59,611 nucleotides of DNA from Candidatus Tagabacteria bacterium (GTDB lineage Bacteria; Patescibacteriota; Minisyncoccia; GCA-002779875). The stretch is taken from NCBI GenBank assembly GCA_963820595.1, contig CAWGAO010000001.1, forward strand, positions 1-59,611. The letters are read 5' to 3'. A program made the position numbers and the translations under genes. The first letter of the stretch is position 1; each line of letters starts with the position of its first letter. Positions 3,161-59,540 of this stretch are shown here, piece by piece. The notes under the pieces were generated by a model that saw nothing but the letters and a program-made list of their open reading frames with translations, did not search any database and was not told where the DNA came from.

Positions 3161-3327
3161 ACCCGCGCCCCAGTTTTGCGAGGCACTAAAGCGGTACGAA
3201 GCGTCAAAAAGATATATTGCCAAATCCTGGCGAGGCGCTTCGCGAAAAAGGGAGGGATGCGCTATCCGCGCCCGCGCCTCGCGAAATGAAATATAGGCAA
3301 AACTGGAGCGGGGTGCTCAAATTTTTT
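3161..3327 (+). repeat. palindromic element (ACCC...GGGGT + GCTCAAATTT) upstream of rpsT
   Basis: Imperfect arms ACCCGCGCCCCAGTTTTGC (3161-3179) and GCAAAACTGGAGCGGGGT (3297-3314), followed by the family flank GCTCAAATTTTTT. Confidence 0.75.
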
Positions 3328-3354
3328 ATTCGCTAATACTCATAAAAATTTGGC

Positions 3355-3612
3355 ATGCCAATAAAAAAATCTGCTAAAAAAGCTTTACGGCAATCAAAAA
3401 GGCACGCCGTAGCCAATCTGAGAAGAAAGAAGGCGATGAAAGACATCGCCAAAAAAATCGGGAAACTCGTTGCGGCAAAAAAGACAGAGGAGGCAAAAAA
3501 GCTCATTCCTTTGGCTTATAAAGCGATAGACAAAGCCGCCAAAACCGGCGTCATTAAGAAAAACGCCGCAGCGCGGAAAAAATCGCACTTAATGAAACTT
3601 TTTAGAAAGTAA
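3355..3612 (+). CDS. rpsT: 30S ribosomal protein S20
   Basis: MPIKKSAKKALRQS...IDKAAKTGVIKKNAAARKKS. Confidence 0.97.
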   Translation: MPIKKSAKKALRQSKRHAVANLRRKKAMKDIAKKIGKLVAAKKTEEAKKLIPLAYKAIDKAAKTGVIKKNAAARKKSHLMKLFRK

Positions 3613-3633
3613 AAATAGAAGCTAGTTAAACTA

Positions 3634-3662
3634 TTGACAAGATAGCATAGCCGTGCTATCTT
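3634..3662 (+). promoter_or_regulatory. sigma70 promoter with overlapping inverted repeat
   Basis: TTGACA-17-TATCTT with an extended TG; palindrome AAGATAGCA-N6-TGCTATCTT spans the spacer and -10. Confidence 0.6.
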
Positions 3663-3779
3663 GATTTTAGTTTCCGGGGTTCTTTGACAAGACCGAAATG
3701 AGACTTTAATTCATCGGGAATTAGTAAGTTGCATTCCAAAGTACAATTTACAAAAAAAACACAAAAAAGGAGAAAGAAG

Positions 3780-4412
3780 ATGCCACGACTAGGATTGTTG
3801 CCTGCTACGATTGCGTTTTTAATTTTATTAGTCTTTATTGTAATGTTGGGGATCATCGGGATAAACAAAGAAAAAGAAATAGCCGATCTCATGTATACTG
3901 TTCCTTCGGTGGATATGTATACAACAACTGCCAGTCAGCTATCTATTAAAGAACTGGAACAATTGAATGGCTTTTTTACGAAGATTAAAGAATTTACCGG
4001 CGTTGACCGAAAAAGCAACCCAATCACTTTGACAGGCGAAGAATTCAATAGAATTCCTACATCACAGCGCAATGTCGGAATCCCTAAAAGCGTTAAATTA
4101 TTCAGGAGCGGATTTTACAATTCCGCGGGTTATACATTAGAATCACAATCAGGAATATTTGCCTCGCAGGCAATCCTGTATGGCAACAAAGCTGATGCCG
4201 ATTTGGCTGAAAAGAATTTAATGAAAATGACAAGAAAACATTACAGCGTTGTGTATAGAAAAGGAAATGTAGTAGGCTCTACAAATATGTATCGTCCAGG
4301 GGAACCGACAAAGGAACTATTTGAACTTGTGGCATTCGTCGAAAAACACGGATTTCATACAACCGTAGTTGATGGTCGAACCGCTAAAGATTGGAAAACG
4401 CTACGTATTTAA
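3780..4412 (+). CDS. hypothetical membrane-anchored/secreted protein
   Basis: AAGGAG RBS before ATG 3780; N-terminal hydrophobic helix; own promoter and terminator. Confidence 0.75.
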   Translation: MPRLGLLPATIAFLILLVFIVMLGIIGINKEKEIADLMYTVPSVDMYTTTASQLSIKELEQLNGFFTKIKEFTGVDRKSNPITLTGEEFNRIPTSQRNVGIPKSVKLFRSGFYNSAGYTLESQSGIFASQAILYGNKADADLAEKNLMKMTRKHYSVVYRKGNVVGSTNMYRPGEPTKELFELVAFVEKHGFHTTVVDGRTAKDWKTLRI

Positions 4413-4423
4413 AATAAAACATC

Positions 4424-56420: not shown

Positions 56421-58533
56421 AATTTGGGTCAATTTCTTTAAGAGAAAGATTTATTCTTCCCATTTCGTCGATGCTGATGATTTTTACGGGGATGACGTCG
56501 CCGATATTCACCACGTCGGTAACTCTGTTGACGCGAAAAGGCGCGAGTTCGGAAATGTGCACCAAGCCTTCCGTTTTCGGCGCAATTTCCACCATTGCGC
56601 CGAATTCGAAAATGCGGCTTACTATCCCTTTTTCGAAAATTTCGCCTACTTGATACTCATGAGTGATTTCTTTGATGATTTCTTCCGCTTTCTTCGCGCC
56701 TTCTTCGTTTTTCCCGGTGATAAAAATCGTGCCGTCCTGTTCGATGTCGATTTCAGCACCGGTGTCGGCCATTATTTTATTTATCACTTTTCCTCCGGGG
56801 CCGATGACGTCGCGGATTTTGTCCGGATTAATCATAAGTTTTATGACTCGGGGCGCTTGCGGAGGAAGTTCTTTTGCCGGTTCGGGAATGGTTGTGAGCA
56901 TTACTTCCAAAATTTTCATTCTTGCATCTTTTGCGCGTTCGAGCGCTTCTTTTAATATCTTCGGTTTTATGCCGTCCACTTTTATATCCATTTGGATTGC
57001 CGTTATGCCGTCTTTTGTGCCGGCAACTTTGAAGTCCATGTCGCCGTGATGGTCTTCCGGACCCTGGATATCGGTCAGAAGTTTATATTCGTTTCCGTGA
57101 GTCATTATTCCGATGGAGATTCCCGCAACCGGATTTTTTATCGGCACTCCGGCGGCCATAAGGGCCAGAGTTGAAGCGCAAATCGAACCTTGCGATGTCG
57201 AGCCGTTCGAAGAAAGACATTCCGAAACAACGCGAACGGTGTAGGGAAATTTATCGCTGGTCGGAATAACCGCCATGAAAGCGCCTTCTCGGCCAACGCG
57301 CCGTGTCCTATTTCGCGCCTTCCCGGATTTCCCATTCTTCCGGTTTCTCCCGAAGAAAACGGCGGAAAGTTGTAATGGTGCATGAATCTTTTTTTCATTT
57401 TTATTTCCATTCCTTCGATAAGCTGGACGTCGCCGGGCGCCCCAAGAGTGACGACGGAAAGAATGTGCGTGCTTCCGCGGTAGAAAAGTCCGGAGCCGTG
57501 CACGCGGGGAAGAAGATTGACTGCGGCAAAAATAGGCCGAAGTTCGTCCATTTTTCTGCCGTCCGCCCGTTTGCCGAATTTAATGGCGTTTAAGTGAATG
57601 ATTTCATTTATTGATTCTTCAAAAAGTTCGTCGGCGAAATCTTTTATATTTTCGCCGAATTCCGTTTTCATGCTTTCCATCCATTCCTTTTTCAGATCGC
57701 TGATTGCAAGTCCGCGGCCGGCTTTTTCGCTTAAACCGCTGGAAGCGGCGTTTTTCAAAAATTGCGTCTTCGAGCCGTTTGTTGAAATGTTTTATTGAAA
57801 GCTTCTTTCACTTTTTCCGGCTCTTCTTTACGCCGCAATTATTCTTTTGGATTTTCCGATTTCTTCGATGATTTTTTCCTGCCACTTTTGGATTTTTTCT
57901 ATTTCTTTCACGCGTGGTCGAAAGCTTCGCCGACGATTTTTTCCGGCACTTCGTTCGCTCCCGCCTCCATCATATTGATTTGTCCGTCTTTTCCGCAGAC
58001 AACCATATCCAAATCGGATTTTTCTCTTTCAGCGTAAGTGGGGTTTGCGATAAAGCCGGGATGGCTGATGCGAACCGCTCCAATGGGTCCGTTCCACGGA
58101 ATATCAGAAGTTCCCAAAGCCAAAGAAGCCGCGATAATTGCGACTATATCGGGATCGTTTTCGCCGTCAACGGCCATAGCCGTGGCGGTAACTTGGGTTT
58201 CGTTTCTTGTTTTTTGGTTGAACAGCGGCCGGATTGTGCGGTCGATTAAGCGGCCCGTCAGAATCGCTTCTTCAGAAGGCCTTCCTTCGCGTCTTAAAAA
58301 TCTGCTGCCCAGAATTTCTCCGGCAGCGTAAAATTTTTCTTCGTAATCAACCGTGAGAGGGAAATAATCCAGATCCCAGGCGTTCGTTTGGCGACATCAC
58401 GGCCGTTGCCAAAACAACCGTATCGCCGTAACGAACGAGAACCGAGCCGTTTGCTTGCTCGGCCAAATTGGAGAATTCAGCCGTCAAGAGTCTTGCCGGC
58501 AAATTCGGTTGTGTATTTTTTAACTTTCATCAT
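56305..58533 (-). CDS. pnp: polyribonucleotide nucleotidyltransferase, several frameshifts in this assembly
   Basis: [50 protein letters not shown] and S1 domains in successive frames. Confidence 0.93.
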
Positions 58534-58546
58534 ACAATTAAATAAT

Positions 58547-59050
58547 TTACATCAAAAATCTTTTAGCATCTTCTCCGAAGTCAATGAAATCATCCGCCAC
58601 TTCTCTTAATTTTGCGGAAGTGGATTTTCCGAACGACGACAACTTCAACCTGCCTTCCTTTTCCTTTAAGATATTCGACTAGAGGAATAAAATCTCCGTC
58701 GCCCGTAACCAGAACAATGGCGTCAATCACCAAATCGGCCAGTCGCACGGCGTCAATCGCCATTCCCACATCCCAGTCGGCTTTTTTCATTCCTCCGGGA
58801 AAAATCTGAAGGTCTTTGACTTTTAATTCTATTCCCATTTTGGAAAGCGCTTCAAAAAACGGCTGTTCTTCGCCGGATTCGGTGCGGATAACATAACCGA
58901 TGGCGCGAATCAATTGCCTTCCGCTAACAGCGGCTTTGAGAATTTCTTTAAAATTAGCTCGGGCTTTGTAAATATTTTTGGCGGAGTGGTACATGTTTTG
59001 AACGTCAATCAAAACCGCCACTCGCTGATTTTTATGTTTAGGTATGTCAT
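58547..59050 (-). CDS. NYN domain (PIN-like) protein, frameshifts near both ends
   Basis: VLIDVQNMY, KKADWDVGMAIDA, VTGDGDFIPLV; C-terminus SFGKSTSAKLRE in an alternative frame. Confidence 0.88.
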
Positions 59051-59056
59051 TATAAT

Positions 59057-59335
59057 TTAATTTATTTTCTTTGTTTTTAATCCGACTTTTTTCGTCAGGC
59101 TTTCGTATCTTTTTTCGCTGGTTTTTTTAAGATAGTTCAGAAGCGTCCTGCGCTTTGACACCATTTTCAAAAGCCCCCGGCGGGAAAGATTATCTTTGGG
59201 GTTCTTTTTGAGATGGTTGACCAATTTTTTGATTTGTTCGGTTAATACGGCAATTTGCACTTCAGGCGAACCCGTGTCTTTTTCGTGAATCTGATGTTTT
59301 TCAATGACTTTTTTCTTTGTTTTTGAAGTTAACAT
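59057..59335 (-). CDS. rpsO: 30S ribosomal protein S15
   Basis: [15 protein letters not shown]...[18 protein letters not shown]. Confidence 0.98.
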
Positions 59336-59383
59336 GCCAAAATTTTTTAAAATTTATGAATGATAATGAATAAATTTTTGTTA

Positions 59384-59540
59384 AATTTTGAGCATCCCGT
59401 TCCAATTTTTCCAGAGATAGCGCATTATTTTTACTTTTTAAAAAAGATAAAAAATTAATCTCGCGGCGCAGAGCCGGAATAGGCCGAGCGAAGCGAGTGC
59501 GCCGCCCTAATCAAGTTTCGAAAAATTGGGGCGGGATAAC
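59384..59540 (-). repeat. family element upstream of rpsO (ATCCCG...CGGGAT + GCTCAAAATTT)
   Basis: Plus-strand arms ATCCCGTTCCAATTTTT and AAAAATTGGGGCGGGAT, with TTTTGAGC flank and an internal CGAGCGAAGCGAG. Confidence 0.7.

Follow-up and report, generated by a model that had tools for sequence, protein, structure and literature searches.

Nested palindromic cassettes with a polar start-codon hairpin in the 5' leaders of a Candidatus Tagabacteria genome

The 59,611-nucleotide stretch of Candidatus Tagabacteria DNA analysed here (the window) is contig C1 of a 570-kb assembly of 10 contigs with 42% GC (G000). The 5' leaders that recur in front of its unrelated genes are best explained as the terminal hairpins of nested palindromic mobile cassettes, a reading to which we give a probability of about 0.72. 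The composite unit occupies all of the sequence that separates a start codon from the preceding stop codon or promoter, and comprises a left hairpin (H- or M), a GC-rich palindrome (ACC...GGT) and a right hairpin (H+) with its 3' arm ending at the ATG. In the complete cassette the GC-rich inverted repeat encloses a 74-aa GIY-YIG nuclease gene. The units share one anatomy and one polarity, are polymorphic as insertions, have a patchy distribution across the class and are linked to the nuclease gene.

Architecture of the cassettes

The 5' arm of H+ is either GCTCAAA(A)TT or GATGATTTT, with TTTTTGGC and AAAATCAATC as the matching 3' arms and AGTCGTTTMACTCCT or AAAACTCRCWTCGCTCRTT as the loop. The AT-rich, covarying stem of 8-12 bp has a bulge at the third position (GCTC/GGC) and then an internal loop, and is topped by a covarying apex of 2 bp, TC-RY-(3-4 nt)-RY-TC, in which the pairs are GC/GC (26 copies), AC/GT (16), GT/AC (12) or AT/AT (4). 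H+ always points towards the gene that follows, and its 3' arm ends at the ATG of that gene or contains it; in several copies (the ATGGC variants, and the extended forms found at rnpA and rpsO) the ATG lies inside the arm. H- is the same hairpin in inverted orientation, AT-rich in its stem; it includes the "left flank" GCGAYTATATTTTTCT and follows or overlaps the upstream stop codon. M takes the same left-hand position and is related to H, with a GC-richer stem (GAATTTGCC-CGCGATTTG-loop-CAAATCGCG-GTTGCAAAACC). Both left modules thus carry the H+ core inverted, and the short element is bounded by terminal inverted repeats, the GC repeats ACCCCGCCCTCTA/TAGAGGGCGGGGT and those of other families. 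A further palindrome family nests inside H+, between the 5' arm and the loop (window 8588-8705 and C7:109872), and two sites have hairpins and no GC palindrome (C5:22968 and C8:51326). G000 carries 58-64 H copies in its 570 kb: 64 were found with an nhmmer profile at E <= 0.01, and 58 with a covariance model (R1) at E <= 0.001.

The window contains eight H+ copies, all of which precede a start codon; bit scores given below are those of the covariance model. On the plus strand, a palindrome of family P3 (CCCGCGCCCC...GGAGCGGGG; 3161-3311) lies between the rpsT promoter TTGCAT-17-TATTAT (about 3133-3161) and an H+ (GGTGCTCAAATTTTTT-attcgctaatactcat-AAAAATTTGGC; 3312-3354; 61.7 bits, also recovered by folding) that ends at the rpsT ATG (3355). 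The full-length cassette begins with an M hairpin (GAATTTGCC-CACGATTT-aaaacgaagtgat-AAATCGTGG-TTGCAAAACC; 6948-6999), the loop of which is the reverse complement of the H core. It continues with the core between the inverted repeats (7000-7246), which holds the 74-aa open reading frame (ORF) at 7012-7236, and closes with a type B H+ (GGTGATGATTTTCT-aaaactcacttcgctcgtt-AAGAAAATCAATC; 7244-7291; 55.2 bits) before the ATG (7292) of a 380-aa protein. Further on, an H- (AAAAATAAGGAGC...GCGATTATATTTTTCTA; 8435-8482) with a small GC hairpin, CCCCGCCGCAATGCGGCGGG, in its loop follows a stop codon. Behind it come a GC palindrome (ACCGAGCACTCAG...CTGAGTGCTCGGT; 8483-8578) and a type B H+ (8576-8737), which is split by the nested palindrome at 8588-8705 (CCCCGCCCGCCTTGACTTCGCC...GGCGAAGTCGGGCAGG) and ends at the pilB-like ATG (8738). 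The palindrome at 8483-8578, like those at 20661-20761, 27563-27674 and 28441-28540, was placed by a scan with 8-mer seeds, whose 187 matches include many by chance and were used for coordinates only. Directly after the rpmH stop stands an M hairpin (20608-20660), followed by an ORF-less palindrome of the P1 family (ACCCCGCCCTCTAAGC...GATGGGCGGGGT; 20661-20761), a miniature of the GIY-YIG cassette, and by an H+ of extended, two-tier form (20759-20813; 23.8 bits) before the rnpA ATG (20814). At the yidC-jag junction, an H- (21875-21919; minus-strand model match 21875-21922) overlaps the 3' end of yidC and supplies its last codons and TAG (..AAAGAAAATAAGGAGCGTTAGCGACTATATTTTTCTTA). A short GC palindrome, also recovered by folding (ACCCGCCCAAGTTTTTGC..GCAAAAATTTAGGCGGGT; 21920-21958), and a type B2 H+ (21956-21997; 60.0 bits) ending at the jag ATG (21998) complete this unit.

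The remaining copies are on the minus strand. A type A H+ (27524-27565; 53.6 bits) ends at the ATG (27523) of a 625-aa TraG/VirB4-like ATPase, and behind it the stretch 27563-27729 is made of a P2 palindrome (27563-27674) and an M hairpin (27675-27729) that begins right after the stop of a 223-aa ORF. This ORF has its own type A H+ (28402-28443; 62.2 bits), ending at its ATG (28401), and an ORF-less P1 palindrome (28441-28540). Finally, an extended H+ (59336-59396; 31.5 bits) ends at the rpsO ATG (59335), and its GC palindrome (TCCCGCCCCAATTTTTC...GAAAAATTGGAACGGGA; 59397-59534) lies downstream of the rpsO promoter TTGCAA-17-TAGAAT (about 59549-59577).

A first-pass annotation of the window, made from the sequence alone, had described these flanks as shared motifs and placed an element upstream of each of a series of named genes. 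H+ does stand before eight starts, but rpmH has a different palindrome of 137 nt (CCCCGTAAAGCAAAATCGAA...TTCGATTTTGCCTTACGGGG; 20334-20470, plus strand), without H+, just after its promoter. Pfam supports the names given to the genes for S20 (rpsT), S15, L34, the RNase P protein, an R3H (Jag-like) protein, a T2SSE ATPase (PilB-like) and the TraG/VirB4-like ATPase. The labels "DHH-like" for the 380-aa protein and "virB4" for the 223-aa protein are not confirmed by Pfam, which has no match for either. The motifs themselves are all present where they had been placed, in copy numbers far above chance: GCTCAAA(A)TT at 3315, 20762, 27562(-), 28440(-) and 59393(-), GATGATTTT at 7247, 8579 and 21959, GCGAYTATATTTTTCT at 8466 and 21902, AGTCGTTTMACTCCTTAA at 21971, 27549(-) and 28427(-), and the 28-mer AAAACTCRCWTCGCTCRTTAAGAAAATC at 7258 and 8706. 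In chance controls, 0.14 copies of GGTGCTCAAA were expected and four are found, and for the 18-mer shared by jag and two ORFs further on the figures are 0.00 and three. GATGATTTT alone has nine extra copies in coding DNA; its extended version, GGTGATGATTTT, is the specific form (three copies in the window, 16 in the genome). The modules combine freely, as had been proposed, with P1, P2 and P4 each found with both arm types, but instead of being independent words they all belong to a single hairpin family, as its arms and loop. GGGT|GCTC simply marks where the GC palindrome meets H+. The common ending ascribed to the rpsT and rpsO leaders is not there: rpsO ends ATTTTGGC-ATG, not AATTTGGC-ATG.

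Two of these sites deserve a further remark. At rpmH, G000 has a promoter (TTGACC-17-TATGCT), an ATG and then the palindrome, and the closest relative has TTGACC-17-TATACT-9-ATG without an insert; the copies of TATGCTTT on both sides of the palindrome at 20334-20470 resemble a target-site duplication. At 25646-28401(-), the 223-aa ORF directly precedes the 625-aa TraG/VirB4-like ORF, with M, palindrome and H+ between them; the same pair of ORFs is 7 nt apart in the relative.

Polarity and insertion

The closest public relative, G001, is a Candidatus Tagabacteria metagenome-assembled genome (MAG) of the Parcubacteria/Paceibacteria group of Patescibacteria, with a YidC identity of 78%. It is the one reasonably close relative compared, and MAGs are incomplete; the whole of it was used, giving 213 syntenic neighbouring gene pairs with G000, and gene models in this work are simple ORF calls made for the analysis. 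Across G000, an ORF of at least 60 aa begins between -14 and +25 nt from the end of the H match after 48 of the 64 copies, against 2 of 64 in the mirror-image control. Random orientation relative to start codons, the objection foreseen in the first-pass annotation, is refuted by this polarity. Of the 48 downstream proteins, 44 have a G001 homolog, and 39 of these 44 align from residue 5 or earlier.

The comparison also shows that the leaders derive from the element, as had been suspected, since the orthologous junctions in G001 are empty. This holds for all 22 co-directional junctions that carry H in G000. Their G001 counterparts are either leaderless promoters or spacers rich in A, about 0-60 nt long and devoid of a Shine-Dalgarno (SD) sequence (e.g. 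GGTAA-AAT-ATG). For the syntenic pairs with H (36/213) the G000 spacer is longer by a median of 177 nt; for those without H, by 1 nt. The yidC-jag junction is tight in G001 and in five more genomes. Where it has inserted, the cassette spans stop to start and leaves no residue of the native spacer, and it often changes the terminal codons of the gene before it (yidC, for example, now finishes with ..KENKER* within H-). G001 itself has two partial H+ copies before ATGs and, at the rpmH-rnpA site, a hairpin resembling M and shorter than that of G000; in all, the sister genus has only two to four H remnants.

Some sites show unusual starts. At the rsmH-like gene (C7:10647-10700; MSHIPVLL at the G001 start), no ATG, GTG or TTG follows H+, the ATG having been removed; the frame reads TGA...GAT AAG AAA ATC AAT CAC ATT CCT, where the sole possible start is an ATC from the hairpin arm. 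At C8:11198-11330, before a small ribosomal-protein-like gene, the native leaderless start TATATT-CTAGAAC-ATGGCGA persists to the left of the cassette and H+ ends ...AAAAATGGCAAAG, so that the start region appears duplicated, possibly as a 7-bp target duplication; the old ATG opens a 12-codon ORF into the palindrome. A possible duplication of the start region is thus seen at C8:11252 (ATGGCGA/ATGGCAA), and another at rpsO.

Two ideas about the start side were rejected. Copying of the arms from the native spacer (target foldback) does not account for them: over the last 12 nt before the ATG, G000 agrees with its G001 ortholog at 4.2 positions, and shuffled pairs agree at 4.35 (p = 0.72). Short "relay" ORFs ending just before the ATG are inconsistent: in an uncontrolled count they reach at least 15 codons at 28 of 48 sites and are absent at 10, and type B lacks such a frame.

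Distribution across the class and the GIY-YIG nuclease

Model R1 detected H in a patchy set of genomes, 5 of the 41 relatives and, class-wide, 61 of 301, the latter representing 44 of 221 genera; copy numbers per genome are lower bounds in the class-wide search. In 20 other genomes the best H copy abuts the ATG of a long ORF in 19, with one doubtful case, and the same kinds of downstream gene recur (rpsL, rplK, rplP, rpsT, glmS and mraZ). In G010 and G031 the copies have the same layout of stop, H-, palindrome, H+ and ATG; the arms differ but still pair.

The 74-aa ORF of the window belongs to the GIY-YIG family (PF01541, E = 3.4e-11, residues 1-58), and its ATG and TAG lie inside the repeats ACCCCGCCCTCTA/TAGAGGGCGGGGT. 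The gene inside the repeats is therefore GIY-YIG and not an HUH/Y1 transposase of the RAYT type (transposases associated with repetitive extragenic palindromes, REP). A second palindrome family of G000 (CCCTCACTCGAAAAT...) has its own GIY-YIG member (C7:165608-165853). Because the ORF-less palindromes have the same ends as those bearing the ORF, they are miniatures, comparable to miniature inverted-repeat transposable elements (MITEs). In seven genomes of other families the order is left hairpin, CCCCGCCCTCT, GIY-YIG ORF, AGAGGGCGGGG, H+ and the ATG of rpsL, mraZ or rplK; in two of the seven the nuclease cassette sits at the nusG-rplK junction. The nuclease clade as a whole is present in 187 of the 301 class genomes, and more often in those with H (50 of 61) than in those without (137 of 240; odds ratio 3.4, p = 3e-4, uncorrected for phylogeny). 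G000 has two further small GIY-YIG genes (C6:75401-75640 and C7:61562-61777), which are not in H-flanked cassettes and adjoin tRNA-like sequences.

These results bear on the suggestion that the leaders are a domesticated, lineage-wide regulatory grammar. Given the few remnants in the sister genus, the presence of the hairpin in 20% of class genomes and the full-length copies with a nuclease gene, the data do not support that suggestion and point to invasive mobile cassettes.

Structure of the hairpins

An alignment of 49 H copies from 25 genomes has standard pairs in 95% of its cells against 67% when shuffled, and double-sided changes occur in 12 of 13 pairs. Its covariation score of 0.61 compares with 0.18 in shuffled and at most 0.19 in slid controls, and none of 500 shuffles reaches it; because the alignment was fitted to the model, these values lean towards structure. 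The pairing in H+ is equally compatible with DNA. Predicted folds give -9 to -11 kcal/mol for H+ alone, and for the yidC-jag cassette one long hairpin of -45.4 kcal/mol (z = -7.45), whose helix is immediately followed by the AUG. In the predicted folds of 21 cassettes (median length 168 nt), the nucleotides left unpaired between stop and start number 8 in the median. Rfam searches gave nothing at the gathering threshold, and the five weak matches at E <= 1 do not overlap the cassettes.

Promoters and translation starts

Among 171 starts verified jointly in both genomes, an SD core at -18..-5 precedes 7% in G000 and 12% in G001. No match to a conserved motif near the 16S rRNA 3' end, sought for the anti-SD, was found in either assembly. 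In G001 there is a peak of the hexamer TAnWAT starting at -12/-13. With few SD sequences and leaderless promoters in this family, the earlier premise of a lineage poor in SD sequences holds.

Leaderless promoters are seen in G001 at rpsO (TTGCAA-17-TACAAT-7-ATG) and rpsT (TTGCAT-17-TATAAA-9-ATG). G000 keeps both, as TTGCAA-17-TAGAAT and TTGCAT-17-TATTAT, and the palindrome and H+ now lie between promoter and ATG. As at rpsT and rpsO, a consensus promoter lies 12-14 nt before the palindrome at three more genes (C8:11252, C3:2071 and C6:60604). As native promoters persist upstream, the cassette is expected to be transcribed as part of the mRNA, and we infer from these sequences that the promoter-retaining genes have a structured 5' untranslated region (UTR) of about 150-240 nt made of the cassette.

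Origin and possible role of the cassettes

A mobile-cassette origin of the leaders is very likely. The cassettes would be spread into stop-start and promoter-start intervals by the GIY-YIG enzyme, or by host repair working on DNA in hairpin or cruciform form. Most copies have lost the nuclease gene, so that their GC repeats fold back into a palindrome as a MITE-like miniature, and other GC palindromes have nested into the same sites, which gives the flanks their mix-and-match look. An inserted cassette would be co-transcribed with the downstream gene and fold back on itself, so that only a few unpaired nucleotides would separate the start from the stop or from the 5' end; since every part folds back on itself, the insert would add little single-stranded distance. 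SD-independent initiation, re-initiation or leaderless initiation could thus continue past it. H+ might keep the AUG usable without an SD by holding it at the foot of a closed structure, or might direct a cut that restores a leaderless mRNA. For an active role of H+ in expression we see about even odds.

Several observations weigh against this account. G000 is only about 56% complete by CheckM-type figures, and no consistent target-site duplication is clear at the 22 filled/empty pairs. The association between H and the nuclease clade takes no account of phylogeny, and G010 has six H copies with no such nuclease gene at E <= 1e-5. The 74-aa ORF consists of the catalytic domain only, without a DNA-binding domain, and is a putative nuclease. 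Arm mismatches are G-U in 9 and A-C in 12 cases in H+, and in 4 and 6, respectively, in the remaining copies; G-U is not enriched, and the data do not favour RNA over DNA as the selected structure. The AUG is fully unpaired in only 7 of the 21 predicted folds, and in isolated H+ folds its A and U are paired to the GGU before it. Given the copies with the ATG inside the 3' arm, cleavage precisely at the hairpin foot could not be universal.

A stronger version of the account may be sketched tentatively, and we regard it as possible but doubtful. The cassette would be an "expression-safe" selfish element of Patescibacteria, in which a minimal GIY-YIG cassette lands between expression signals and the start codon, also at leaderless transcription starts, and brings its own start-codon module, H+, to restore SD-independent initiation by a compact fold or a cut.

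Of the alternatives, the one that survives best, although we hold it to be less probable than not, is that H+ is only a DNA-level hairpin for recognition or recombination, as REP is for RAYT, and that its polarity and its place at the ATG result from the insertion mechanism together with purifying selection against insertions that harm essential genes. The arms are nearly perfect Watson-Crick complements in which G-U is not in excess over A-C, the conserved bulge and asymmetric loop are typical of hairpins recognised by proteins, and the same core recurs inverted after stop codons (H-, M), so that the unit resembles an element bounded by terminal inverted repeats. Native spacers are 3-30 nt long, and any tolerated insertion therefore falls near both codons. 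Against this, the right and left modules are systematically different: the right ends carry clamps (GGTGCTCA..TGGC-ATG or GGTGATGA..TCAATC-ATG), the left ends carry stop codons, and the element reaches exactly to the ATG with no native residue. The asymmetry of left and right tracks gene direction in 25 genomes, and essential ribosomal-protein genes without an SD must still be translated behind the element.

It is unlikely, in our estimation, that H+ or the whole folded cassette serves as an RNA-processing signal, at which an endonuclease would cut the 3' foot and regenerate a leaderless mRNA with a 5'-AUG. (The cut proposed in the first-pass annotation was on the other, 5' or palindrome side of H+.) The leaderless state is native to G001, as its TAnWAT peak at -12/-13 and TACAAT-7-ATG at rpsO indicate, and 5 of the 13 G001 genes with leaderless promoters carry H+ in G000. 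A sigma-70 promoter kept upstream of the palindrome at six genes (among them rpsT, rpsO, C8:11252, C3:2071 and C6:60604) means that the AUG is now internal, and types A and B have stems reaching to -1. Copies with the ATG in the arm (ATGGC variants; extended forms at rnpA and rpsO) do not suit a cut at the foot, however, and Rfam at E <= 1 revealed no ribozyme or other known processing motif.

Less probable still is a function of H+ as a DNA promoter, with the 3' arm giving a -10 box 5-7 nt before the ATG and hence a leaderless restart in each cassette. Subtype A2 does read TATAAT-TTTGGC-ATG (TATAAT at -12..-7), with the spacing of native leaderless G001 genes (TGGTATAAT-TTTGGC-ATG, TACAAT-AATATCC-ATG), and type A has TAATTT at -11..-6. 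But hexamers resembling a -10 follow from the composition of AT-rich arms alone, those of type B lack an acceptable -10, and no type has a -35 or an extended -10 (TGn) at the proper distance; canonical TTGnnn-17-TAnnnT promoters are kept just upstream of the palindromes at six genes, including rpsT and rpsO. A vertically inherited host leader controlling a regulon, beside which GC palindromes merely insert, is very improbable: the hairpin varies very little in sequence between families of the class, is found repeatedly in front of similar genes (rplK, rplP, rpsT, glmS and mraZ) and occurs without a GC palindrome at C5:22968 and C8:51326, but it is absent at 22 of 22 orthologous sister-genus junctions and from 80% of class genomes, stands in near-identical copies before unrelated genes of one genome, is physically coupled to the nuclease gene in eight genomes and remodels the 3' ends of upstream ORFs, and it has no Rfam match at the gathering threshold and none overlapping the cassettes at E <= 1.

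Other features of the window

The window has no tRNA or tmRNA. Its cumulative GC skew has a minimum at about 16-18 kb, and a 460-aa ORF (18820-20202, minus strand), which we take to be probably dnaA, adjoins rpmH-rnpA-yidC-jag. A DnaA-box-like sequence, TGTGGATAA, lies at about 20268, and a sub-threshold Rfam match to AsdA (antisense of dnaA mRNA) at 19639-19719 (43.5 bits against a gathering threshold of 52, E = 1.3e-5). The region at about 16000-20300 is probably the replication origin region. The intergenic interval 13281-13404 has weak sub-threshold Rfam matches to L10_leader (32 bits, E = 0.21) and to two small RNA families, unrelated to the cassettes.

Significance and comparison with known elements

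Strong selection against non-essential DNA is assumed to act on the streamlined genomes of the candidate phyla radiation (CPR); here a cassette has enlarged about 50 or more spacers. The start contexts of about 50 or more mostly essential, unrelated genes have been replaced by a mobile palindromic cassette, which offers a natural experiment on translation start without an SD and on the tolerance of leaderless genes for a structured 5' UTR of about 200 nt. Many unexplained GIY-YIG genes of about 80 aa in Patescibacteria are now linked to a repeat family. For genome annotation, the cassettes account for unusual C-terminal tails and for starts that are displaced or not ATG (such as the ATC of the rsmH-like gene), and they may contribute to assembly breaks in such MAGs. 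If the hairpin does insulate or present the start codon, it would be a useful genetic part; and if the "expression-safe" version were true, about a tenth of the genes, many of them ribosomal, would depend on a translation-start signal supplied by a parasite. A full-text literature search of open-access papers and preprints found no description of these elements.

The REP elements and bacterial interspersed mosaic elements (BIMEs) of enterobacteria and pseudomonads usually lie after genes and supply no start contexts, and RAYT is an HUH/Y1 transposase. The cassettes resemble them as short extragenic palindromes in high copy, with mosaic hairpin and linker motifs, in transcribed operon spacers, and in their link to a small enzyme gene of their own that lies between such palindromes. 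They differ in their minimal GIY-YIG gene, exact stop-to-start filling, fixed polarity and hairpin on the start-codon side. MITEs and REP-type elements have been reviewed (PMC3184786).

The Correia elements of Neisseria (CREE/NEMIS) and the ERIC/IRU elements are likewise MITE-like, with inverted ends and a position near genes. Both are co-transcribed, fold into long hairpins and alter the 5' UTRs, promoters and processing of their neighbours. Correia elements use TA as their target, which they duplicate, and lie in either orientation and at a variable distance from the start codon. In contrast, the cassettes show no clear duplication, are strictly polar, end at the ATG and have a candidate autonomous partner with a putative nuclease gene. 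The GC clusters and double-hairpin elements of fungal mitochondria and the palindromic elements of Rickettsia are also GC-rich palindromes that invade AT-rich compact genomes, nest and remodel the ends of reading frames. They belong to other lineages and have no conserved start-codon hairpin, and we know of no stop-to-start cassette architecture described for them.

Among nuclease genes, the seg genes of phage T4 are the closest parallel in that a GIY-YIG gene lies between conserved genes, not in an intron, and is present or absent at the same junction (here nusG-rplK, in two genomes). Seg proteins are about 200-250 aa long, have a DNA-binding domain and are tied to one home site. The ORF described here differs in encoding 74 aa, the catalytic domain only, within inverted repeats and outer hairpins, and in having ORF-less derivatives at about 50 or more sites in one genome. 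SegB is one example of these free-standing GIY-YIG homing endonuclease genes of T4-like phages (PMC2330249). No system compared unites all that the cassettes do: palindromes nested in one another, a GIY-YIG gene of minimal size, a span running exactly from stop to start and a polar hairpin at the start codon.

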